A stretch of 64,000 nt of DNA, taken from the NCBI GenBank assembly GCA_041600715.1, contig JBFIJM010000001.1:64387-128386 (forward strand), written 5' to 3'. This stretch comes from Candidatus Saccharimonadales bacterium (GTDB lineage: Bacteria; Patescibacteriota; Saccharimonadia; Saccharimonadales; 2-12-FULL-41-12). A program made the position numbers and the translations under genes. Positions 2,227-60,789 of the stretch are shown piece after piece. The notes beneath the pieces were generated by a model. It ran no database searches and was not told where the DNA came from. It saw only the letters and a list, made by a program, of their open reading frames with translations. Within the stretch, counting starts at the first letter, position 1; each line of letters starts with the position of its first letter.

Positions 2227-4836
2227 ATGGTGAAGGTGAAAAATAAGGTACTACGTCGCGCTCTCGGCGATCCTCAAATCCGGACATTAAAACGACTCAC
2301 TAAACGCGTCGCTAGTATTAACGAGCTTGAACCTAAGTACAAGAAGCTAACCGACAAGCAACTTGCTGACCAAACAGATAAGCTCAAGAAGCGTATCGAA
2401 AAAGAGTCTCTAGATAAAGTTCTGCCAGATGCCTTTGCGATTGTTCGAGAGGCCGCTAGAAGAATCTTAGGACAGCGTCATTTTGATGTTCAGTTAATTG
2501 GTGGAATGGCGCTTCACGAAGGTAGTATCGCAGAGATGAAAACAGGTGAGGGTAAAACTCTTACTTCTACTGCGCCGGTATACCTCAATGCCCTTAAGGG
2601 TGAAGGTGTTCATGTGGTTACTGTAAATGATTATCTAGCCCAGCGAGACGCCGCCTGGATGGGGCAAATATTTGGATTTCTGGGACTTACAACGGGTGTA
2701 ATAATTGCTGAGTCTTCTTTTATTTTTGATAAGGACTATGATAATGGCGAACATGATGATCCAAATATGCGCAAGCTCAAGCCATGTAGCCGACAGGAAG
2801 CCTACTTAGCTGACATTACTTACGGAACAAACAATGAGTTTGGGTTTGATTACCTTAGAGATAACATGGTTCGCGAGACAGAACAGTTACGACAACGTAA
2901 ATTAAATTTTGCTATTGTTGACGAAGTTGACTCAATTTTGATAGACGAAGCACGTACACCTTTAATTATCTCTGCACCTTCTACTGCCAGCGGTACTGCA
3001 TACCAGCAATTTGCAAAAGTTGTTCGTGGCCTAAAGGAAGTGGATCATTACACAGTTGATGAAAAACGAAAAGCTGTTACATTAACCGATGAGGGCATAG
3101 ATCAAGTCGAAAAAGTTCTTGGGATATCTAATCTGTACGCCTCAACTAATATTCGTACTCTCTACCATCTCGAGCAGGCTCTAAAGGCTCAGGGTATGTT
3201 TAAGAGAGATAAAGACTATGTGGTGACTACAGATGGCGAAGTAGTAATAGTTGACGAACACACCGGTCGCCTATTAAAAGGCCGTCGTTATAATGAGGGG
3301 CTTCATCAAGCTATCGAAGCCAAAGAAAACGTTGAGATTCAGGAAGAGTCAATGACGCTTGCAACGATCAGTTTCCAGAATTACTTCCGTTTATACGAGA
3401 AATTATCCGGTATGACAGGTACAGCTTCAACCGAAGCTGAAGAATTCCATCAGGTTTATAAATTAAGTGTTGTAGAAATCCCTCCGAACAAAAAATTAGC
3501 TCGTATTGATCAACCGGATCAGATATATAAAACAGAGGCCGGCAAGTTTAAGGCAATCATAAAAGAGGTGAAACGGCTCAATAAAAAAGGTCAACCAGTA
3601 TTAATTGGCTCTGCTTCGATTGCAAAGAACGAACTGCTAAGTTCACTTTTGACTAAGGCAGGCGTAAAGCACCAGATGCTTAACGCAAAAAACAACGAGC
3701 GTGAAGCTTCGATAATTGCCAAAGCTGGTCAAAAGGGAGCAGTTACACTGGCTACAAATATTGCTGGCCGTGGCACAGACATAGTATTGGATGCTGGAGC
3801 CAAAAAGGCCGGGGGATTGTTTGTTCTTGGGTCAGAGCGTCACGAGTCGCGTCGTATAGATAACCAGTTACGTGGGCGTGCTGGTCGTCAGGGTGACCCT
3901 GGTGAGAGTAGGTTCTACGTTAGTTGCCAGGACGACTTAATGAGAATCTTTGGCGGTGACAGAATCGCAAAAATGATGGATCGGCTTAAAGTAGACGACG
4001 AAACACCAATAGAAAACCGTGTGATTAGTAAAAGTCTTGAAGGATCTCAGAAAAAAGTAGAAGGCTTTAACTACGATGCCCGCAAAGATGTGGTGAAATA
4101 TGATGACGTCATGAATCGTCACCGTAAGGCTACTTACAGCATGCGTAGCGAGATATTGAAGCAAGCGGATATAAGCAAGCGTGTGTGGGAATTTATTAAT
4201 TCCGAAGCTGAGGCGCTTGCAAACTCACCACATGCTACAACCGACAAGTACGAAGAGATGATTAAGCATGTTTTTCCGTTCGACGAATCCACACTTGATA
4301 AATTATTTGATTCACCAGCCCACAGCTTCGAAAAAGAGCTGAAAAACGATGCAAAAAAACTCTATCAAGAACAAGAAGAACGCTTTGGCGAGGAGATACT
4401 GCGCAAGATCGAGCGTGACGTGTATTTACAAACGTTGGACAACTATTGGATGCAACATTTAGAGAACATGGAGCACCTACGTGAAGGCATTCGCTGGATG
4501 GCTGTTGGCCAGAGGGATCCCTTAGTCGAGTATCGTCGTCAGGCACAGCGTCTTTTCGAAGAGTTGCAGAGAACCCTCCGTCACGATGTTGTCAGGTCGC
4601 TCTTCCACGCCCGACCTATTAATGAGGCCGATCTTGATCGTTCTGTAGAAACAGAACTGACCAAAGCAGCACGACGGTCCGTAGATAATGCTGATAAAAT
4701 AATTGAAGCAGAAGAATTTAGTGAAATTAACTTTAACTCAGAAGTAAAAGAAACTGCCGAAAAGAAGAAAGTAGCTAATAAGCGAAAAAAGTCACGAAAA
4801 GCCGAGCGCCAAAGACGTAAAAAAGGCCGTAAGTAA
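2227..4836 (+). CDS. secA: preprotein translocase ATPase SecA
   Basis: 869 aa; MKTGEGKTL Walker A, DEVDSILIDEARTPLIIS, GRGTDI. Basic C-terminal tail without the usual Cys/His zinc motif. Confidence 0.97.
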   Translation: MVKVKNKVLRRALGDPQIRTLKRLTKRVASINELEPKYKKLTDKQLADQTDKLKKRIEKESLDKVLPDAFAIVREAARRILGQRHFDVQLIGGMALHEGSIAEMKTGEGKTLTSTAPVYLNALKGEGVHVVTVNDYLAQRDAAWMGQIFGFLGLTTGVIIAESSFIFDKDYDNGEHDDPNMRKLKPCSRQEAYLADITYGTNNEFGFDYLRDNMVRETEQLRQRKLNFAIVDEVDSILIDEARTPLIISAPSTASGTAYQQFAKVVRGLKEVDHYTVDEKRKAVTLTDEGIDQVEKVLGISNLYASTNIRTLYHLEQALKAQGMFKRDKDYVVTTDGEVVIVDEHTGRLLKGRRYNEGLHQAIEAKENVEIQEESMTLATISFQNYFRLYEKLSGMTGTASTEAEEFHQVYKLSVVEIPPNKKLARIDQPDQIYKTEAGKFKAIIKEVKRLNKKGQPVLIGSASIAKNELLSSLLTKAGVKHQMLNAKNNEREASIIAKAGQKGAVTLATNIAGRGTDIVLDAGAKKAGGLFVLGSERHESRRIDNQLRGRAGRQGDPGESRFYVSCQDDLMRIFGGDRIAKMMDRLKVDDETPIENRVISKSLEGSQKKVEGFNYDARKDVVKYDDVMNRHRKATYSMRSEILKQADISKRVWEFINSEAEALANSPHATTDKYEEMIKHVFPFDESTLDKLFDSPAHSFEKELKNDAKKLYQEQEERFGEEILRKIERDVYLQTLDNYWMQHLENMEHLREGIRWMAVGQRDPLVEYRRQAQRLFEELQRTLRHDVVRSLFHARPINEADLDRSVETELTKAARRSVDNADKIIEAEEFSEINFNSEVKETAEKKKVANKRKKSRKAERQRRKKGRK

Positions 4837-4925
4837 CAATTAATGATAGTCGATTTACGAACAACAATAAATTTCCATTTAACATTGAGCAATAAAAGAG
4901 CCAATTGTAAACAGAGAACAGCCTG

Positions 4926-6221
4926 ATGAAGCATAGTGTACACGAATTAACTCTGCCTAACGGAGCCAAAGGTCTTTTGATAAATATACCAGAGGCTACG
5001 GTAATGTCATTTGAGTTTAATTTTAGGGCCGGTGAGTACCTAGTAGATCGTAATATTTGGGAAGCTCCACATATTATGGAGCACTTATTATTGGGCGCTA
5101 ATAAACACATCCAAAAAGCCCGCGAATTCCAGTCTGAGTTCGAAAAAAATGGCGCATATTGCAATGCAAGCACAGGCACCCACGATATAATTTATGAAGC
5201 CGAATGCGCGGATTTTGAATGGCAAAGAATCATGGACTGGCTACTAATAGCAATTACGGAACCACTGTTTCTTGAGGAAGAGTTTAAAGCCGAAGTCGGT
5301 AACGTTCGCGAGGAACTCACAGCTCGTTCTAACAACCACTTCAGACATCTTAGCATTGCACTCAGAGAACAATACGGATTTTACAGCGTTACAGACAAGG
5401 AACGTCTTGAACTTATGAGTAACGTGACTTTGGATGATATTAAGGAGCATTATAAGAGTACTCACACCACAAGTAATTTGCGATTTGTTATAGCAGGGAA
5501 GATAACTCAAACTAGACGTAAGCAAATAAGAGAAAGCCTCGGTACAATGGGGTTGCCAAAGGGTCGTGGACGTAAAGATCTTCCAGATGAAACTCCTCGG
5601 TCTTTATTGGAACCACTGACTATTCGTAATAAAACAGTAGATAATTATTACTTTTACTTTGATACATTCGTAAAACGGAGAATGAACGACGACGAACTAG
5701 CTGCAATGAGTTTACTCAATAGCATGCTCACTGAAACCTTATATTCTAGAATACTCGGCACAGCTCGAGAACGGGGTCTTGTGTATAGTATGAGTTCAGG
5801 TGTGGGCTATGACCGGACTAGTACTAACTGGTGGTTTGGAGCCCAGGTACGACCAGATAATGCACACGCACTTTTTGATATTATGACCAACGAACTTACT
5901 GAAGTGTTTAATGGTAATCTGACCAAAGAAGAAATCGATATGGCGAAACAGCGTCGACTTGGTGGGTATCAGAGAAGTTACCAGACTGTGGCGGGACTTG
6001 CAGGGTATTATTCGGCACCTTATTTCTTCGATGATCATTATATTGACTATAATACACTGCCAGATCGCATAAAAACTGTTACTAAGACCCAAATTGTTCA
6101 TGCTGCGAAGGATTTATTTAGCGAAAAAGTTTGGGGTCTTGGCATACTCGGCAACCCTGATAATGGTGAAGTAGAGGCATTAACTTCTCAGCTCAATAAT
6201 ATTTGGAGCAAGTTCGACTGA
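4926..6221 (+). CDS. M16 (insulinase/pitrilysin) family zinc peptidase
   Basis: 431 aa with inverted zinc motif HIMEH (HxxEH) near the N-terminus. Confidence 0.8.
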   Translation: MKHSVHELTLPNGAKGLLINIPEATVMSFEFNFRAGEYLVDRNIWEAPHIMEHLLLGANKHIQKAREFQSEFEKNGAYCNASTGTHDIIYEAECADFEWQRIMDWLLIAITEPLFLEEEFKAEVGNVREELTARSNNHFRHLSIALREQYGFYSVTDKERLELMSNVTLDDIKEHYKSTHTTSNLRFVIAGKITQTRRKQIRESLGTMGLPKGRGRKDLPDETPRSLLEPLTIRNKTVDNYYFYFDTFVKRRMNDDELAAMSLLNSMLTETLYSRILGTARERGLVYSMSSGVGYDRTSTNWWFGAQVRPDNAHALFDIMTNELTEVFNGNLTKEEIDMAKQRRLGGYQRSYQTVAGLAGYYSAPYFFDDHYIDYNTLPDRIKTVTKTQIVHAAKDLFSEKVWGLGILGNPDNGEVEALTSQLNNIWSKFD

Positions 6222-6234
6222 TATACTGTATTCT

Positions 6235-7326
6235 ATGCATGAGTTGAAAATCCAGGCGCAGAAGTTGGTCGATGAAATTAGATCGGCCACTACAACTATT
6301 AAACTTGAACATAAGACAGCAAAGTTAGAAGAATTATTACAAGTCTCTGGCGATGCGAGTTTTTGGGAAGACTCTGAAAGAGCGCAACTACACATGCAGG
6401 CCCAGGCAAAACTTCAATCCGAGATTGAGCCCTGGAAGTCTTTGTTAGAACAAGCTCAGGATACGCTAGAATTAGCAAACCTTGAGGATGAAACCTTGGA
6501 GTCAGATCTAACTAAGCAACTATACATACTTCAGAAAACGTTCGAATCATTAAAAAAAGATCTAACATTTAACGGGCCATATGATGACCATGCGGTTATC
6601 TTAGCTATTCATGCCGGAGCTGGGGGAACGGATGCTCAAGATTGGGCTCAGATGCTTCTTAGGATGTATGTACGTTGGGCAGAACAGAATAACTTCAAGG
6701 TACATATTATGAGTGAATCACCCGGGGAAGAAGCAGGCATAAAAAGCGTTGAGCTTGAAATGAGCGGAAAGTTCGCTTACGGAAAGTTAGCTACCGAACA
6801 CGGAGTTCACAGACTAGTGCGCCAAAGTCCGTTTAACGCTGATGCAAAGAGACAAACCAGCTTTGCCAAAGTGGAAGTTATGCCTAGAATTGATCGTCCT
6901 GAGGAGGTGCCTCTGGATGACGCCGACTTAAAGATTGATGTTTACCGAGCAGGTGGCCATGGTGGGCAAAGTGTTAACACAACAGACTCTGCAGTCCGTG
7001 TCACGCACATCCCTACAGGTGTGGTAGTTGCAATTCAAAACGAACGAAGTCAGCTACAGAACAAGGAAACAGCATTAACGATTCTGCGTTCCAAACTAGC
7101 CCAACTACAAATCGAGCAACATTCCGAGAAATTATCCGAGATCAAAGGTCCAAACGAACAAGCTGCGTGGGGTAATCAGATCAGAAGCTACGTGCTTCAT
7201 CCATATAAAATGGTCAAAGATCTGAGAACCCGACACGAAACCACAGATGTCGATGGTGTGTTGGACGGCGATCTAGATCCTTTTATAGATGCGTATCTTG
7301 AAACAAATCTAAAAAACAAAACATAA
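6235..7326 (+). CDS. prfB: peptide chain release factor 2 (single uninterrupted ORF)
   Basis: SPF tripeptide (VRQSPFNA) and GGQ (GGHGGQSVN); no in-frame TGA frameshift site; TATACT 6222-6227 lies 7 nt before the ATG. Confidence 0.95.
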   Translation: MHELKIQAQKLVDEIRSATTTIKLEHKTAKLEELLQVSGDASFWEDSERAQLHMQAQAKLQSEIEPWKSLLEQAQDTLELANLEDETLESDLTKQLYILQKTFESLKKDLTFNGPYDDHAVILAIHAGAGGTDAQDWAQMLLRMYVRWAEQNNFKVHIMSESPGEEAGIKSVELEMSGKFAYGKLATEHGVHRLVRQSPFNADAKRQTSFAKVEVMPRIDRPEEVPLDDADLKIDVYRAGGHGGQSVNTTDSAVRVTHIPTGVVVAIQNERSQLQNKETALTILRSKLAQLQIEQHSEKLSEIKGPNEQAAWGNQIRSYVLHPYKMVKDLRTRHETTDVDGVLDGDLDPFIDAYLETNLKNKT

Positions 7327-7330
7327 GCTT

Positions 7331-7359
7331 TTGACACAAGAGGGCTAGAGGAGTATATT
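7331..7359 (+). promoter_or_regulatory. sigma70-type promoter TTGACA-17-TATATT
   Basis: TTGACA 7331-7336, 17-nt spacer, TATATT 7354-7359, 24 nt upstream of ATG 7384. Confidence 0.6.
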
Positions 7360-7383
7360 CCAGTTCAATACAAGGTATTTGTA

Positions 7384-7839
7384 ATGAGCGTACAATATAT
7401 AGAAACAGATCCAGTAAGGCTAGCTCGCTACGATGCTCTAGAGGAGTTGGAGTTTATCAGAAATGAGCGACTCTCACCTATAAATAATTGCACACTTAAG
7501 CGTTTGCATACTACAGCTAAGCTCACAGGTTTACTGATGAGAGATTTCCGTATAGTTGTTCGTGACGCAGTATATTCTGAGCCAATTGTAGACGGTGCCG
7601 AAAGCGCTATGGAGCTTGGGCGGAGGAATTTACATGTACCTGAAAGCATCAGTATTATTGGAAAGTTTGTAGGCTATGCCCAGCTCAACACTGCAGTTTT
7701 CGACAAAGCATACCAGCTTGGTCTTACATTCATCAAACTAGAGAATATTGAGCTTACTGAGGATAGGATACATTTAGATGATAGCGCCAGGATATATTCA
7801 CCTATTTTAGGCGTCCAATACATCGAACAACTTAACTAA
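7384..7839 (+). CDS. hypothetical protein (151 aa)
   Basis: Long ORF with its own consensus-like promoter; no motif recognised. Confidence 0.55.
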   Translation: MSVQYIETDPVRLARYDALEELEFIRNERLSPINNCTLKRLHTTAKLTGLLMRDFRIVVRDAVYSEPIVDGAESAMELGRRNLHVPESISIIGKFVGYAQLNTAVFDKAYQLGLTFIKLENIELTEDRIHLDDSARIYSPILGVQYIEQLN

Positions 7840-7878
7840 TCCACTAAGATACGAACTTCTTTGTTATAATGCTTATAT

Positions 7879-8562
7879 ATGATCTTATTGGATAGGGTAT
7901 CGAAGTCGTACAACAAACGAAGTGGCACCGCTTTGGAACGTGTTAGTTTACATATAGAACCTAAAGAATTTGTGGTGATTATTGGGAGTTCTGGTGCTGG
8001 TAAATCAACTTTATTAAAGCTACTAACGCGAGAAGAAAGACCAACTTCAGGTAAAATCGTTGTTGGCGGGATAGATTATAGCAAGCTTAAGGACCGAGAT
8101 ATACCGTACCTGCGTCGTCGCATTGGGGTTGTTTTTCAGGATTTTAAGTTACTATCCAATAAAACTGTTTTCGAAAACGTGGCATTTGCCTTAGAAATTA
8201 TTGGTGTCAGCACCAAAGAGATAAAACACACCGTGCCTAAGGTGCTTAATATAGTTGGACTTAAAAATAAAGCCGACAACTATCCACCCGAACTTTCTGG
8301 TGGCGAGAGACAACGTGTTGCAATCGCAAGAGCGATTGTTAGACAACCAAAAATTCTTATTGCCGACGAGCCAACTGGCAACCTAGACCCTAAGCACGCT
8401 TGGGACGTTATTTCAGTTTTAGAGAAGATAAATCGATATGGCACCACTGTACTACTTACGACACATAACCAAGAGATTGTTAATAAGCTAAATAGGCGAG
8501 TTATCCAGATCGATCATGGAAAGGTTGTCAGTGACCGTGCAACCGGAGGCTATAAAGGGTGA
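7879..8562 (+). CDS. ftsE: cell-division ABC ATPase FtsE
   Basis: GSSGAGKST Walker A, LSGGERQR signature, ILIADEPTG Walker B. Extended -10 TGtTATAAT 7862-7870 ends 8 nt before the ATG. Confidence 0.95.
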   Translation: MILLDRVSKSYNKRSGTALERVSLHIEPKEFVVIIGSSGAGKSTLLKLLTREERPTSGKIVVGGIDYSKLKDRDIPYLRRRIGVVFQDFKLLSNKTVFENVAFALEIIGVSTKEIKHTVPKVLNIVGLKNKADNYPPELSGGERQRVAIARAIVRQPKILIADEPTGNLDPKHAWDVISVLEKINRYGTTVLLTTHNQEIVNKLNRRVIQIDHGKVVSDRATGGYKG

Positions 8563-9515
8563 GAAAAGACAAGAGCTTTAGTCGTGGTATCTATACTTTG
8601 GGTAGGGTTATCCAGTACGGTGTTAAAAATCTACTAAGAAATGCTTGGCTCAGTATCGCAGCTATTGCTGTTATGTTTGTAGCTTTGGTTATTATCTTGG
8701 CGACTGTAGTCTTAAATGTCACAGCCAATAATGCGATTGCCGAACTGTCTAAAAACTTAAAAGTATCAGTTTACCTAAAAGATGACGTTACAGACGAGCA
8801 AAGAAGCGATCTCGAATCTGAAATTAGTAACAACCAGTATGTAGAAGGTTTAGAATTTGTGTCAAAAGACGATGCTCAGAACCGATTCGTTAGTAGTTTC
8901 GGCAATGACCAAGAGCTACTCCAGGGTTTATCGCTTATTGGCGCTGACACTTTGCCCTCATCTTATGAAGTAAGCGTCAGTGACCTCTCGCGCTTGCCAG
9001 AGATAGAGACAATAGCCAATAAAGAACAGTACGCTGAAGTTGTAGATAGCGTAACTTTAGGTAGAACCGATGCAAGGCGTACAATCGATCGAGCAGCGTC
9101 AGCTCAGCAGTTTATAACCACAGCTAGTATTTTTGCTGCGGGAACTTTTACCGTAATCTCAGTTCTTATAATTTTTAACACCATTAGGATTGCCATATTC
9201 ACTCGTAGTGAAGAAATACGAAATATGAAACTTGTTGGGGCAACACCAAGTTTTATCCGTGGGCCATTCATCGTGGAGACCTCTATATATGGGGTTATAG
9301 CAGGCCTGTCGGCAGCGAGTGCTTCGTATTCTATTATTATTTCGCTTGGCTCCAAGATCGCTACTCAAGCAGAATTCGCGAAAACATATACTTTCTTTAC
9401 TGAACCAACAACAGTAGCTCTTGTCTATATAGGCAGTGTAACGGTCGGGATTGTAGTAGGTATTTTTTCAAGCATGCTTGCGATGCAAAAGTATTTAAAA
9501 CTTAAACACTGGTAA
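8559..9515 (+). CDS. ftsX: cell-division permease-like protein FtsX
   Basis: GTGA start/stop overlap with ftsE. N-terminal TM, large extracytoplasmic domain and three C-terminal TM segments. Confidence 0.9.
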   Translation: MRKDKSFSRGIYTLGRVIQYGVKNLLRNAWLSIAAIAVMFVALVIILATVVLNVTANNAIAELSKNLKVSVYLKDDVTDEQRSDLESEISNNQYVEGLEFVSKDDAQNRFVSSFGNDQELLQGLSLIGADTLPSSYEVSVSDLSRLPEIETIANKEQYAEVVDSVTLGRTDARRTIDRAASAQQFITTASIFAAGTFTVISVLIIFNTIRIAIFTRSEEIRNMKLVGATPSFIRGPFIVETSIYGVIAGLSAASASYSIIISLGSKIATQAEFAKTYTFFTEPTTVALVYIGSVTVGIVVGIFSSMLAMQKYLKLKHW

Positions 9516-51747: not shown

Positions 51748-51762
51748 AAGAGTGTAAAGGTA

Positions 51763-51791
51763 TTGACAATCCGAAACAAGTTTGCTAGAAT
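51763..51791 (+). promoter_or_regulatory. strong orphan sigma70-type promoter TTGACA-17-TAGAAT (with TGn extension)
   Basis: TTGACA 51763-51768, 17-nt spacer ending TGC, TAGAAT 51786-51791. No ORF follows for ~500 nt. Confidence 0.7.
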
Positions 51792-51797
51792 GTCAAT

Positions 51798-52156
51798 TTG
51801 TAAGCCTATAAACTTATTATGTTTATATGTCTTAAGTACCTTCCATACCCCCAATGTTAGATTGTTTTAGAGTGTGCCCTTGCTGGCACAGCTATGCAGA
51901 AGTTGTTACCCTCCACTTCAGTATAGCCTATCTTACTCCGGTAAGAACTCTAAAACATACTAACCCCTTTAACATTCAGATGGTCCTCAATGCGAGGCTA
52001 TCTGAGTACCCCTATTCAAAGTGAGTATTGACGTATTCCGGATTTATCTGGAGGCGCCTGGTTGACCATTGCGTAACCATAGGACGCTTCACTGGGGTGG
52101 GTTGAAGGGTGTAATGAGCCTCCAGCGGTGCCCACCCCCTCTGGAGGCTCTTTTTT
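51798..52156 (+). ncRNA. unassigned structured RNA (~360 nt; candidate sRNA or cis-regulatory leader)
   Basis: Bounded by promoter 51763-51791 and an intrinsic terminator. Compact four-way junction 51863-51957 nested in helix 51853-59/51970-76, plus alternative pairings around the terminator. 5' end is estimated. Confidence 0.5.
52116..52156 (+). terminator. rho-independent terminator
   Basis: GAGCCTCCAG (52116-25) / CTGGAGGCTC (52141-50), 10-bp GC-rich stem, 15-nt loop, then TTTTTT 52151-56. Confidence 0.75.
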
Positions 52157-52296
52157 GTGGTGATATTTCTTTGGTGATGACAAGAAGTGCTCACTGCATC
52201 TTCTGCCCCCCTTGGAGACACCCTCCTTGTTTTTGATCAATGTCTTTACAAAACATAACTATTATGCTATAATGTATAGTAAGAAAAATATTATCT

Positions 52297-56982: not shown

Positions 56983-58293
56983 CTAGAGTGCAATAATATC
57001 GTGTTCGTTAGAGGATTGGTTGTTGTTTGATGGTGGGTTTTGAGGAGAGTTACTAGGGGTTATAACTGATTCTGCGCCGGGATTAACCACTGGTGCTTTT
57101 TGCTGTTCTTTCTCGAGCAGAGCTTCCATATCAGGACCGTTCGTGATGTCGTTAATAGGCTGGATAACTACCTTTTTTTTCGTATCATCGAGCGGATTGT
57201 CGGGTATGGGAGTAGCTTCTGGGGACTCAGGCTCAGAAGGAGACGTGGTTGCTTCGGGAGTTTCTTCCGCCGGTTGCGATGGCTCAACTACAGATGGAGT
57301 GACCGCTCCGTTTACTAAGGTTGGATCAGGTGAGGACGGCACGCTCGGTTGGGTATTTGTTTGTGCCTCATGGGTGGCTTCGTTTTCTTCTTGTTCTAGA
57401 GCTTCATTTAAGTTTGGACCGATAATAGCAGGAGCAACATCTTCTGTTTGCGCTGACGTCTCATCTAGTGGGGCTTCTTCTGTTTGTTGAGACGATTCCA
57501 CTATAGGCTGATTAGTTGCTTCAGATGGAAGCTCAACATTAATCTGGATAGGCGGAGCTGGCTGTGGTTCAGGTGTGGCTACTTGCTCCACAGGAGGTGT
57601 TTCGGACACAGGCTCTTGAGCAGGTTGGGGCTCTTGAACGGGTTCAGGAGGCGTTGGCGCCGGTTGTGACTCTGGTTGTGTATCGATTGGCTCTGGGACT
57701 GCTGGTGCTTGTTGTTCTACTTGAGGAGTTGGTTCTGGTGTGTCGGGTGTTGTAGTAACTGGGTCAGATGTTGCCTGAGTTGTATCATCATTAGTTTGAG
57801 ATGATTGTGTGAGGGCTTGAGAATTATCATCACTGCTAGGAACAGGGCTTTCATCAGGTGTCGGTGAAGCAGGAGCTTGTTGTTCGGGTGTTTTAGCTTC
57901 TGTGGGCTCATGAGGAGTGTCTGAGTTACCTTCTAGTACATCTTTTACTACTCTAGCTACATCCTCTAGAGTAACCTGAGATTTTACTAAGTAACGATCG
58001 GCTCCGAGTGAGTCGGCTCTTGCTTTGTCTTCAGCTTGGGATAGCGCTGTCATCATAATGACTTTAGTGAACTTAGTCTCTGGTGCATTACGAAGAATAT
58101 CAAGCATATCAAAACCACTAATACGTGGCATCATGACATCAGAAATAATAAGATCAGGCTTTTCCTTGACCGCTGTAGCAAGAGCTTCTTCTCCATCTTT
58201 AGCTGCGACTATTTCGTAACCTTCTGCGAGTAATCTCGCACCGTATATTTCGCGTAAGTTATTGTCGTCTTCGACTAGCATTATTTTTGCCAT
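56983..58293 (-). CDS. response regulator receiver fused to a ~310-aa Pro/Glu/Thr/Gln-rich low-complexity tail
   Basis: MLVEDDNN, DLIISDVMMP, MMTAL, YLVKS, then PEPTPQVEQQAPAVPEPIDTQPESQPAPTPPEP... to the C-terminus. Confidence 0.85.
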   Translation of the reverse strand: MAKIMLVEDDNNLREIYGARLLAEGYEIVAAKDGEEALATAVKEKPDLIISDVMMPRISGFDMLDILRNAPETKFTKVIMMTALSQAEDKARADSLGADRYLVKSQVTLEDVARVVKDVLEGNSDTPHEPTEAKTPEQQAPASPTPDESPVPSSDDNSQALTQSSQTNDDTTQATSDPVTTTPDTPEPTPQVEQQAPAVPEPIDTQPESQPAPTPPEPVQEPQPAQEPVSETPPVEQVATPEPQPAPPIQINVELPSEATNQPIVESSQQTEEAPLDETSAQTEDVAPAIIGPNLNEALEQEENEATHEAQTNTQPSVPSSPDPTLVNGAVTPSVVEPSQPAEETPEATTSPSEPESPEATPIPDNPLDDTKKKVVIQPINDITNGPDMEALLEKEQQKAPVVNPGAESVITPSNSPQNPPSNNNQSSNEHDIIAL

Positions 58294-58353: not shown

Positions 58354-59610
58354 TTATCCCAATATGCTCTTTGGTTTTTCGTCTGCTTGCAAGTGGGCCG
58401 CCTGTTGGGATGTAAGTCTTGGGAGATTTATATAAAAAGTACTTCCCTCGCCTACCTTGCTGTCGGCCCAGATAGTGCCGTTGTACATCTCTACAATCGC
58501 TTTGCATATGAATAGCCCTAAGCCAGTACCGCCAACTGAGCGGGTAGCCGAATTATCGACACGGTAAAACTTCTGGAATAAGTGAGGAAGGTCATCGGAT
58601 GGTATGCCTGGACCAGTATCGGATACACGTAACTGGACTACATCATTATTGCCTGTTATTCCCAAGGATACTTTACCCGATTCGGTGTACTTGACCGCAT
58701 TATCAAATACATTGGTGATAACTTCACGAATTCGGTCCGGATCGACATGAGTGTAATACAAGGGCATAATGGTCTTGCCTACAGAAGAAGTTGCGTCGGT
58801 AACATTATTTGTTTGAGCCGAGGAAGTGCCATGAATGAATTCTACTTTTAGATTTTTCTTTTCTGCTCCGAAGCGTAGATCTTCTGCAAGTTGTTCTACA
58901 AAACTGCCCATTTCGGTAACTATTGGATGGCTAGTTAGTCTTCCGTCCTCAGCTTTAGCGCTTGTTAATAGATCTTGGAACAACTGTCCTAGGTGCTGGG
59001 TGCTGGCATGGGCTTTTTCTAGATACTGTCTGGCCTTAGGGTCTATTTGGCTTACTTTTTCATTCAGAGCAAGCGCCAAATACCCCTCTATCGCTGCCAC
59101 GGGGGTTCGCATTTCGTGGGATGCAGTACTAATGAAGTCTGCACTTCGCTTCTCCTCACCTCTCTCTTTGCTCACATCACGAAACACTGCTACCGCGCCG
59201 ACCAGTTCTTCTTTCTTTGGGATAATGATCGGCGATATTACAAGTGAAATATAAAGGCGTTTATTGTTTCTGCTCATTAGTTGCATTGTTTGGCTGAAGC
59301 GCTCCTTTGTAGATAAAACCTTAGTAAAAGGATGATCGTTGTCTGGGATGGCTTCGTTAGTTTTTTCATCCCCAAGTAGTTTTAATACCGCACGAGCATC
59401 TATGCTCATAGCCTCTTCAATTGTCCACTCGGTCATGGTAGACGCAGCTTTATTGATAAGATTAATCCTGCCATCGGTTCCGGTGACTACTATCCCATCG
59501 CTAATGGACTGTATTAAGATCTCGGCCTGAACCTCTTTGCTCTTAAGAGCGCCACTTAATTGGCTAATTTCATCTTGTTTGCCGGTACTGTCTTTTTTCC
59601 AAAAAGCCAC
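58354..59610 (-). CDS. cytoplasmic PAS-domain sensor histidine kinase
   Basis: GTG start; PAS (SISDGIVVTGTDGRINLINKAAS), H-box SHEMRTPV, N-box DNAVKYT, DTGPGI, GGTGLGL. Confidence 0.9.
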   Translation of the reverse strand: MAFWKKDSTGKQDEISQLSGALKSKEVQAEILIQSISDGIVVTGTDGRINLINKAASTMTEWTIEEAMSIDARAVLKLLGDEKTNEAIPDNDHPFTKVLSTKERFSQTMQLMSRNNKRLYISLVISPIIIPKKEELVGAVAVFRDVSKERGEEKRSADFISTASHEMRTPVAAIEGYLALALNEKVSQIDPKARQYLEKAHASTQHLGQLFQDLLTSAKAEDGRLTSHPIVTEMGSFVEQLAEDLRFGAEKKNLKVEFIHGTSSAQTNNVTDATSSVGKTIMPLYYTHVDPDRIREVITNVFDNAVKYTESGKVSLGITGNNDVVQLRVSDTGPGIPSDDLPHLFQKFYRVDNSATRSVGGTGLGLFICKAIVEMYNGTIWADSKVGEGSTFYINLPRLTSQQAAHLQADEKPKSILG

Positions 59611-59827
59611 TAACTTCTCGTCCCACTCATTTAATGCTTATGTATTTGTATGTAGTATACAATAGACTTTCACTGGTGTCGCCACGATTGCGACCAGAGG
59701 TGGGTTGTGGTAGAATTGCTTAGTCTCTACATCTGTTAGAGTTGTATGGCCGACATCTCTTCGAGATCCGGCCGGCCAACTCGAAAGTTAGATTTATGTA
59801 AACACAAATCTAACTTATCTCATTCCC

Positions 59828-59902
59828 GGCCGCATCGTCTAACGGTTAGGACACCAGGTTCTCATCCTGGCAATCGGGGTTCGATTCCCCGTGCGGTCAC
59901 CA
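59828..59902 (+). tRNA. tRNA-Glu (anticodon CTC), CCA encoded
   Basis: 75-nt cloverleaf. Acceptor GGCCGCA/TGCGGTC (one G-U), D stem GTCT/GGAC, anticodon stem CCAGG/CCTGG with loop TTCTCAT, T arm CGGGG-TTCGATT-CCCCG, ACCA end. Confidence 0.9.
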
Positions 59903-59940
59903 TGAAAAATACCCCAGTACCATCTGGGGTATTTTTCATG
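59901..59940 (+). terminator. 17-bp perfect hairpin/terminator starting at the tRNA CCA end
   Basis: CATGAAAAATACCCCAG / CTGGGGTATTTTTCATG with a 6-nt loop; U-rich 3' arm. Confidence 0.65.
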
Positions 59941-60297
59941 TCTAACCCCCGCGGGAAGCGAACCCGAGCACGTAGTGCGGGTTCGAAGATCAAAGCCACG
60001 CACAGGAGTTTACTCCGAGCATGGCTGCAGAGCGCAAGCCTTTAGGCTTATTCCCCGTGCGGTCACCATGAAAAACGCTCAGCCATTTGGCTGGGCTTTT
60101 TTCATGCTTCCCGTAGCGGTGGAACCGAACCCCGATTGGTTTACATGCGTAAGTAAGTGGCAATCGGAGGTGCGGTAATCAAAGGCTCTCGCAGGAGCTT
60201 GCTCCGAGAAAGACAGCAGATTATACAAAGTATTCCCCGTGCGGTAGCCAAACTAAAATCCCCACCTATGTGTGGGGATTTTAGTTTGGACTGTAGT
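59941..60297 (+). repeat. two tandem GC-rich pseudo-units, each ending in a copy of the tRNA-Glu 3' end plus a long hairpin
   Basis: Exact 26-nt repeat ATTCCCCGTGCGGTCACCATGAAAAA at 59884-59909 and 60050-60075; degenerate copy ATTCCCCGTGCGGTAGCCA at 60232-60250; hairpins at 60067-60106 and 60248-60289. The two units are homologous to each other. Confidence 0.75.
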
Positions 60298-60300
60298 AGT

Positions 60301-60789
60301 TTAGCTAGCGAACTCTTGCGATGCATCGTTGAGTAGATTTTGATCGAACTCATCCAGAGGCAGTCTATAAAGCTTCGCATACTGGGCTTTAACATGGTCG
60401 CCATTCTCGTCGCGTACGTTTTCGTCTATAAGGGGTTGGTGCGTGACGGCTATTATATTGCTGTCTTCCTCGATATGCTTATCATAGCGCTGTGCAAGGT
60501 CTATGATTCTAAGCGTAAGTTTATGCATATATCCCCCGTTTAATCCCCATAGTTCTAGTTCTCTACACTCAACAAGAGGTATGTTTAATCTTGTAGCTAA
60601 TATCTCGCCTGTCTCGCGTGTCCGTGGCACAGGAGAAGCGAGTACTAGCCCAGGGTGTGTTGAGCCTACTCCTAGGCTCCCTAGTATCTCAGCTGTTTGC
60701 TCAACTTGATTTATACCACGCTGTGATAGCGAGTAATCTGCACCATATCCTCTTTCGCCATGTCTCATAACGTATATATTCATCTTCAT
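60301..60789 (-). CDS. histidine phosphatase superfamily protein (SixA/PGAM-like)
   Basis: IYVMRHGERG RHG motif; later VTHQP His. Confidence 0.75.
   Translation of the reverse strand: MKMNIYVMRHGERGYGADYSLSQRGINQVEQTAEILGSLGVGSTHPGLVLASPVPRTRETGEILATRLNIPLVECRELELWGLNGGYMHKLTLRIIDLAQRYDKHIEEDSNIIAVTHQPLIDENVRDENGDHVKAQYAKLYRLPLDEFDQNLLNDASQEFAS

Follow-up and report, generated by a model that had tools for sequence, protein, structure and literature searches.

RNAs that imitate part of a tRNA can be freed by tRNA processing, as is mascRNA from MALAT1, and minihelices of acceptor and T-arm are substrates of RNase P and of the CCA-adding enzyme. RtT has so far stood, to our knowledge, as an isolated curiosity of enterobacterial tyrT operons without an accepted function. 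In the Escherichia coli tyrT operon (NC_000913.3), the repeats measure 178 bp, and each of them finishes with the 3'-terminal 19 nt of tRNA-Tyr and holds GGGGAAGGATGAGAAGCTTCGA, an inverted copy of the T-arm (86% over 22 nt). A closing helix of GGGGAAGGAU with AUCCUUCCCC is present both in the predicted fold and in the consensus of the Rfam family RtT (RF00391), whose model matches all four E. coli units with 133-138 bits, and the annotated rttR terminates exactly at the CCA of its repeat. This RNA is encoded by one tyrT repeat unit and may modulate the stringent response (PMC3318445; bioRxiv 10.1101/2024.07.17.603846). Here we describe a locus of similar construction in a 64-kb stretch from a Candidatus Saccharimonadales bacterium (contig JBFIJM010000001.1; the whole stretch is called the window below). 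The 3' flank of its tRNA-Glu gene consists of two diverged copies of a folded element of ~130-145 nt, units A and B, both of which terminate with a repeat of the tRNA's own 3' end. The units share the design of RtT but fall outside RF00391; the locus is of greater interest than a scar of integration, yet a variant of a known design.

The window contains one tRNA gene, tRNA-Glu(CTC), on which ARAGORN and Rfam agree. An earlier note on this DNA had reported that the last 19 nt of the tRNA and 7 nt of its trailer recur exactly downstream and then once more in a degenerate form, and both copies proved to be as described (Table 1): the 26-mer ATTCCCCGTGCGGTCACCATGAAAAA is identical at 59884 and 60050, and the third copy is a 19-mer with two mismatches. 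Three matches of the tRNA-end repeat in the window compare with 0.01 expected, three or more were reached in 0 of 100 shuffles, and the repeat core is confined to the tRNA-Glu locus within the 64 kb. Each copy runs from its CCA into a hairpin of 17-18 bp (HP1 to HP3), and the outer arms CATGAAAAA and TTTTTCATG are common to HP1 and HP2, again as previously described. HP1 combines an A-tract, a GC core and a U-tract and therefore has the look of a bidirectional terminator. An intrinsic-terminator scan flagged HP2 alone; HP1 and HP3 have a GC core and T-runs that are part of their unusually long stem of 17-18 bp. HP3 lies 12 nt past the stop codon of a convergent His_Phos_1 gene (60301-60789, minus strand) and is probably a shared convergent terminator for the tRNA/unit transcript and the umuDC-phosphatase operon. 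The region of 470 nt as a whole folds far better than its shuffles (z = -11.1).

Table 1. Features of the tRNA-Glu locus. Coordinates are positions within the 64-kb window; labels of the form L0xx and P0005 denote related genomes or metagenomic loci, L001 and L002 being metagenome-assembled genomes (MAGs).
Feature	Position	Strand	Remarks
Candidate promoter of sigma-70 type upstream of tRNA-Glu, TTGCGA-17-TAGAAT and TG	59688-59716	+	consensus scan; weak
tRNA-leader hairpin	59785-59816	+	15 bp, 93% complementary; inverted-repeat search
tRNA-Glu(CTC), encoded CCA	59828-59902	+	ARAGORN; Rfam tRNA, 60.9 bits
Repeat copy 1	59884-59909	+	tRNA positions 58-76 plus 7 nt of trailer
HP1	59901-59940	strand-neutral	17 perfect pairs, begins in CCA
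Unit A	59941-60068	+	window type (type VI); nearest relative, L021 unit
Unit A, 5' antisense tRNA segment	59948-59965		59953-59965 is 92% complementary to tRNA-Glu 59877-59889
Unit A, H1	59959-59985		
Unit A, H2	59988-60033		apex CAGGAGTTTACTCCGAG
Unit A, H3	60036-60049		absent from unit B
Unit A, closing helix	59948-59955 with 60054-60062		3' tRNA-end copy from 60050
Repeat copy 2	60050-60075	+	exact 26-mer
HP2	60067-60106	strand-neutral	18 positions, one G-U, one mismatch; terminator-like
Unit B	60107-60250	+	window type (type VI); 3' part nearest to L015 unit
Unit B, antisense T-arm	60121-60138		94% complementary to tRNA-Glu T-arm 59871-59888
Unit B, H1	60124-60176		antisense and sense tRNA pieces
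Unit B, H2	60177-60222		apex CAGGAGCTTGCTCCGAG
Unit B, closing helix	60111-60123 with 60234-60244		degenerate tRNA-end copy 60232-60250
Repeat copy 3, ATTCCCCGTGCGGTAGCCA	60232-60250	+	19-mer, two mismatches, degenerate
HP3	60248-60289	strand-neutral	18 perfect pairs

The homology of the two spacers between these hairpins, also claimed before, was upheld, as they are 73% alike over 52 nt and have in common the motif CAGGAGyTTrCTCCGAG, which occurs within the window at 60003 and 60192 only (0 expected) and, as CAGGAG...CUCCGAG, forms the apex of hairpin H2 in units of the window type. The GC-richness attributed to the spacers is a real excess, but a modest one (~0.55 vs ~0.40-0.48 in the flanks). 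The scrambled tRNA pieces noticed in them are present as well, and half of them are inverted, a point little stressed earlier. The hairpin H1 of window-type units is composed of antisense and sense pieces of the T-loop and variable loop, and the closing helices of units A and B are interrupted (8 bp and 11 bp) and pair more weakly than those of the canonical types described below. Units of the window type are also present in L002, L015, L021, L052 and L060. A consensus scan for promoters gave no more matches than shuffled sequences, and the candidate upstream of tRNA-Glu is thus weak.

Pieces of T-arm, variable loop and acceptor strand within the units are what would be expected from degenerate tandem tRNA-Glu genes, i.e. 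from simple pseudogenisation, which was one of the options offered in the earlier note. This option found no support and appears to us very improbable: the units contain neither a cloverleaf nor a tRNA 5' half (ARAGORN, and Rfam even at E <= 10), the inverted orientation of half of the pieces is at odds with it, and the units bear conserved hairpins foreign to tRNA. Moreover, among the 39 related loci that we obtained from metagenomes, none has a second tRNA where the unit lies.

These loci come from a single scan of metagenomes, in which the tRNA-Glu core had to occur twice at a spacing of 153-183 nt. Because the pattern fixed the tRNA type and the spacing, the numbers of loci measure neither prevalence nor taxonomic range, and most loci carry no taxonomy. 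The scan returned 47 loci, 35 with a single tRNA-Glu (CTC or TTC) and a unit, four that start inside an array and eight unrelated repeats. The layout of the window is repeated in 39 of the 47 and in the MAGs L001 and L002, as a tRNA (Glu, once Ser) followed by a hairpin, an antisense segment of T-arm and acceptor, covarying hairpins and a copy of the tRNA 3' end. In 18 of 43 pairs, the repeats cease to be identical precisely where the mature tRNA ends (10 at the discriminator and 8 three bases further, where CCA would end), and in most others they do so within a few bases of it. At the variable acceptor position, the 3' copy agrees with the tRNA of its own genome with L029/L030 as the sole exception. 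In the latter, a U5-G68 pair of the tRNA stands against a Watson-Crick pair in the copy, and we discarded this swapped 3' end as a sign of recombination because a single transition is too weak for such a claim.

Canonical units are built as follows. The hairpin is succeeded by P0, a complement of the acceptor 3' strand (e.g. GACCUCAC), often by Px, a 9-bp hairpin with a CUGC loop, and then by GGGGAAUCGAA, the complement of the T-loop and of the T-stem 3' strand, which pairs with the 3' copy in helix P1 and thereby encloses a junction holding the hairpins P2 and P3. The antisense motif GGGGAATCGAA, which closes this three-way junction with the 3' copy, is present with up to two mismatches in 30 of the 43 distinct units. 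In the closing helix of the family, GGGGAAUCGA is paired with UCGAUUCCCC; because the ends of the unit pair in this manner, the helix mimics the stacked acceptor and T-stem of the adjoining tRNA. Read from 5' to 3', the first strand of a unit equals the acceptor 5' strand joined to the T-stem 5' strand, and the RNA, once closed, thus amounts to an acceptor/T-stem minihelix of that tRNA, in which a large insert replaces the T-loop and which ends in the discriminator(-CCA). In a single locus, L037 (5491-5782), a hairpin and a unit belonging to this family stand behind tRNA-Ser(CGA); the 3' end of this unit copies tRNA-Ser, and the covariance model of the tRNA-Glu units found it (26.4 bits, E = 0.002). 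The closing helix of this unit is rewritten, with GGUAGAGGAUUCGAA paired to UUCGAAUCCUCUACC, and matches tRNA-Ser; the closing helix therefore tracks whichever tRNA adjoins.

Scans against Rfam with the whole window at gathering scores, with the region at E <= 10 and with 17 related loci at E <= 0.1 gave no family covering the units and yielded tRNAs plus one LOOT match beside a unit. The latter is a LOOT RNA (RF03000) at L039 918-1023, which scores 52.8 bits, above the gathering score, and lies ~55 nt downstream of a tRNA-Glu unit. Group I introns within tRNA genes from Patescibacteria are located in the anticodon loop and are much larger than the units, and were rejected as a parallel because of this site and size (PMC13011429).

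The fold of the units is maintained by compensatory change. A seed alignment of five type I sequences contains 51 consensus pairs, 19 of them with compensatory changes, and the covariance model built from it also found the other unit types. Across 11 distinct units, 90% of the cells are paired and 32 of the 51 pairs have changed on both sides, a value that 0 of 500 shuffles reach and against which slid controls give 11-19; this alignment was fitted to the model and therefore favours the modelled structure. In the window type, units A and B aligned with five relatives by MAFFT showed 87.6% pairing, and 10 of 21 pairs had changed on both sides (one of 500 shuffles; 3-6 in slid controls). The conserved loops are CUGC of Px, as judged by eye, and the H2 apex among units of the window type. 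Folding favours the tRNA strand in 27 of 30 units (-48.2 vs -41.7 kcal/mol, p = 1.3e-5), and the covariance-model scores on this strand exceed those on the opposite one three- to four-fold in the seed units and about twofold in the remaining units.

These data also bear on the idea that the repeats are a neutral relic, left behind by duplication in place, by a switch of template at the tRNA terminator and by unequal crossing-over between tRNA-end repeats, without function as RNA or as site. The long palindrome that the tRNA 3' end makes up together with the hairpin and the antisense copy is indeed the expected product of template switching at a hairpin, the tandem units of L002 are perfectly identical, and the units of the window are partly degenerate. 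A relic of this kind is nevertheless improbable in our view, as several helices are preserved by compensatory changes across very different sequences, with loops conserved besides, and as the 26-mer has stayed exact while the unit bodies are 73% alike or unalignable. Moreover, the same plan stands behind three different tRNAs in distant phyla.

Compared with RtT, the units agree in several respects. They stand in tandem immediately behind the 3' end of a tRNA gene and measure about 130-180 bp each (the window pair occupies 59941-60250); they end in the last 19 nt of that tRNA, from T-loop position 58 to the CCA (exactly at 60050-60068, with two mismatches at 60232-60250); the 5' part of an inverted T-arm copy pairs with the T-loop and T-stem of the 3' copy and closes a domain of several hairpins; and RtT holds an antisense plus sense T-loop hairpin, TCGACCAAGGTTCGA (TCGACC-AA-GGUUCGA), that resembles H1 of the window type. 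In contrast, the tRNA is tRNA-Tyr in E. coli and tRNA-Glu or tRNA-Ser in the present loci, and the phylum differs as well. The E. coli copies are near-identical (95%) and have no hairpin after the CCA, whereas our units are diverged or of mixed types and are each followed by a terminator-like hairpin of 17-18 bp; in many canonical units, the acceptor strand is paired as well (P0) and an additional arm (Px) is present. With RF00391 no match was obtained in 59600-60400 (E <= 10) or in the 17 related loci (E <= 0.1), and membership of this family at its gathering score thus fails; conversely, the covariance model of the units has no match in E. coli. A 15-mer in common with E. coli RtT, AGGAGCGAAGCGACG, was rejected as evidence of homology, since shuffled controls also reach 15. 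The likeness to mascRNA and to tRNA minihelices is one of structural analogy only: here, too, a terminal helix imitates the acceptor/T-stem and ends in discriminator-CCA, and biogenesis by tRNA-end processing is likely, but the mimic copies the adjacent tRNA base for base and carries a multi-hairpin insert instead of a T-loop.

We consider it fairly probable that the units are RtT-like tRNA-trailer RNAs, the ends of which imitate the acceptor/T-stem for release by tRNA-end processing and which turn over by recombination at the repeats. Direct support exists for the anatomy, for a fold kept by compensatory change, for a bias to the tRNA strand throughout the family, and for recurrence behind tRNA-Glu, tRNA-Ser and the tRNA-Tyr of E. 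coli. The proposed course of events starts with transcription of the units together with the tRNA, which would occur by read-through of the hairpins. Release would then depend on the enzymes of tRNA-end maturation, with an RNase P-type 5' cleavage at the mimic helix and 3' trimming to the CCA, while RNase III possibly cuts the long hairpins. The hairpin body would be the working part, probably as a small RNA that binds a protein. Copy number and unit type appear to change fast, with the tRNA-end repeats serving as presumable recombination points, so that the elements would behave as portable cassettes, too. Among the options of the earlier note, tRNA-derived small RNAs kept for their 3' structures come closest to the covariation seen in the comparative data.

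Several observations weigh against the proposal of RtT-like RNAs. A terminator-like hairpin precedes every unit, and it is strong, so that transcripts can reach the units only by read-through or from a promoter that escaped notice. The minus strand of unit A has a slightly better fold than the plus strand (-56.9 vs -50.5), unit B barely beats its shuffles (z = -1.95), and the window units keep a degraded mimic helix, with repeat copy 3 itself degenerate. The covariance-model-fitted alignment may be biased in favour of its own structure, and no relation to RtT is detectable by covariance models, each of which misses the family of the other. Finally, the patchy presence of the units, the swapping of their types and the unit copies flanking 1-1.3 kb of genes in L016 and L032 would also fit a mobile element acting at the DNA level.

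Such an element would be a miniature integrative cassette of hairpin, unit and tRNA-end copy, with attP only or a P-arm remnant, which would insert by site-specific recombination at the T-loop with the newest copy next to the tRNA and be mobilised in trans by a recombinase whose gene lies elsewhere, the hairpins representing recombination-site structure and not RNA. This interpretation and that of an RNA are mutually compatible; taken as the explanation of the locus, we judge the cassette to be unlikely, though worth serious attention. One line of evidence for it comes from relatives. The window's histidine kinase (HK) has its best genome match (69% identity) in Candidatus Saccharibacteria, and the order of HK and tRNA-Glu is kept across relatives. 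The earlier note had proposed comparing relatives for empty and occupied tRNA-Glu sites, and among the syntenic Saccharibacteria 0, 1 or 2+ units of differing types were found: none in L004, L005 and the P0005 contig, one in L001, L015, L029 and L060, at least two identical units in L002, two unit copies flanking 1.35 kb in L016, and two different units in the window. These differences in presence, and the swapping of unit types between relatives, lend some support to the turnover that the earlier note had envisaged in speaking of decayed tandem integration remnants.

The members of an array also have their nearest relatives in other genomes. Unit A is nearest to L021 (89% over 85 nt) and unit B to L015 (80.5% over 77 nt), while the units of L033 are nearest to those of L053 and L055. 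HP2 is similar to the hairpin closest to the tRNA in L001, which makes HP1, unit A and its repeat look like the latest addition, placed next to the tRNA; in arrays, decay is often strongest in the final repeat. On its left side, the identity has its boundary in the T-loop, reportedly a known crossover site of integrases. In L016 (5648-6995, tRNA-sense), copies of a 153-nt unit (98.7%) flank 1.35 kb with two open reading frames (ORFs), and L032 resembles it, with unit copies around 1-1.35 kb of ordinary genes. The two ORFs of L016 encode 227 aa, peptidase-E-like by eye, and 130 aa. The defence island of L001, described below, begins directly after the repeat, and many contigs break at the tRNA-Glu locus.

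An 88-nt module of one unit type was found in three contexts, namely at the T-loop position, in a D-loop and at a site without a tRNA, which likewise would suit a mobile cassette. At the T-loop position of a 3' fragment, it forms the body of the L001, L029 and L050 units. L070 (175-330, minus strand), the HK of which is 75% identical to that of the window, contains upstream of an intact tRNA-Glu a duplicated promoter, tRNA positions 1-17, the 88-nt module and positions ~20-31, and this looks like an insertion of the module into the D-loop of a partial tRNA-Glu copy. The module is furthermore present at L004 16878-16960 and L006 7300-7388, in a 450-nt intergenic region far from tRNAs and with no tRNA-end copy.

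Against the cassette, the search for a recombinase was negative. The earlier note had remarked that no integrase is present near the repeats, and this holds for the window flank (His_Phos_1, UmuC, UmuD, response regulator (RR) and HK by Pfam), for the L001 island, and for the 25 most frequent of the 85 Pfam families matched by 77 downstream ORFs of 40 loci; among these 25, the ORFs downstream of the arrays belong mostly to housekeeping families. Three scans of IMG/VR viral contigs, with the tRNA-Glu end and two unit patterns, gave only tRNA genes of phages, the end of one contig and matches due to chance, and thus no phage or plasmid with a unit or a matching attP. Strand-biased folding and G-U pairs suggest an RNA, the counterpart in E. 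coli is an expressed and processed RNA, and cargo-less elements of 160-180 bp in dozens of genomes are unlike the outcome of random island decay. As in attL/attR elements and in cis-mobilizable elements (CIMEs) without an integrase of their own, the 3' end of a tRNA is directly repeated from the T-loop onward, the repeats form arrays, relatives have empty sites, and an island adjoins the repeat in L001. The present loci differ from them in that there is no integrase and mostly no cargo, and in that the inserts measure 150-180 bp and contain an antisense version of the tRNA end besides hairpins that covary and favour one strand. Of the marks of attL/attR insertion, the locus has the direct repeats and the empty sites (L004, L005 and the P0005 contig), and no recombinase, foreign cargo or free attP element turned up in the flanks, ORF families and viral contigs searched. 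A miniature inverted-repeat transposable element or other dispersed repeat was rejected, as the repeat core and the H2 apex occur at one locus only within the 64 kb.

The phosphatase-umuDC block next to the array was suggested before to be the cargo of an island, and the comparison of relatives refutes this. The right flank of the window reads His_Phos_1-UmuC-UmuD-RR-HK, the same block is present in L001, and the UmuC/UmuD flank also exists in the unit-less L004, L005 and P0005 contig; because it is kept in relatives with and without units, it is a conserved flank, not cargo. In L001, a separate defence island of ~6 kb lies between the unit and this block. It spans 3791-9303 and encodes a methylase of the EcoRI family along with GmrSD_N+HNH and Schlafen/AlbA_2 proteins; an ABC transporter adjoins, and neither a distal repeat nor an integrase was seen in this island of the closest genome. 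An exact-protein look-up gave no record for the phosphatase or for UmuC of the window.

Some further observations concern the genomes rather than the units. The independent assemblies L002, L003, L006, L007, L069, L070, L071/L072 and L073 end within the tRNA-Glu locus or a few hundred bases from it, and L069, in which the HK is that of the window itself, breaks off after the first 8 nt of the repeat; the repeated breaks suggest repeats or strain heterogeneity at this site. A response regulator at 56983-58293 (minus strand) consists of a receiver domain and a low-complexity tail of ~300 aa rich in P/E/T/Q/S. Its N-terminal 124 aa are 84-93% identical in L001, L016 and L029 and 62-82% identical in others, whereas the tail is not conserved. 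The intergenic gap of 546 nt at 51748-52296 contains a GC-rich segment with a hairpin (GAGCCTCCAG...CTGGAGGCTC; 52083-52155, minus strand), to which BLASTN found similarity in L001, L002, L004, L005, L006 and L007, the match in the window consisting of two pieces of 36 and 29 nt. The L004 copy of this segment matched no Rfam family, and it may represent an unannotated conserved RNA.

The presence of the RtT design behind tRNA-Glu and tRNA-Ser in Saccharibacteria and many other uncultured bacteria, where it shows strong covariation and comes in several module types that are interchangeable, turns RtT into a comparative problem, and it can now be asked across the family which parts are constrained, which partners are bound and why the closing helix copies the adjacent tRNA. 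There is also a consequence for annotation: since the loci resemble att scars and interrupt assemblies, they may be mistaken for the edges of islands, as happened here when the phosphatase-umuDC block was taken for island cargo. Tentatively, and as a conjecture that we still regard as doubtful, we suggest that RtT and the new elements make up one cross-phylum class of "tRNA hitch-hiker" RNAs, modular elements that would borrow the 3' end of the adjacent tRNA and its complement for their maturation by tRNA-processing enzymes and would spread and be swapped as cassettes by recombination in tRNA loops (the T-loop, and the D-loop in L070). If this is true, RtT, an orphan RNA for 45 years, would be the enterobacterial tip of a widespread hybrid of RNA and mobile element.

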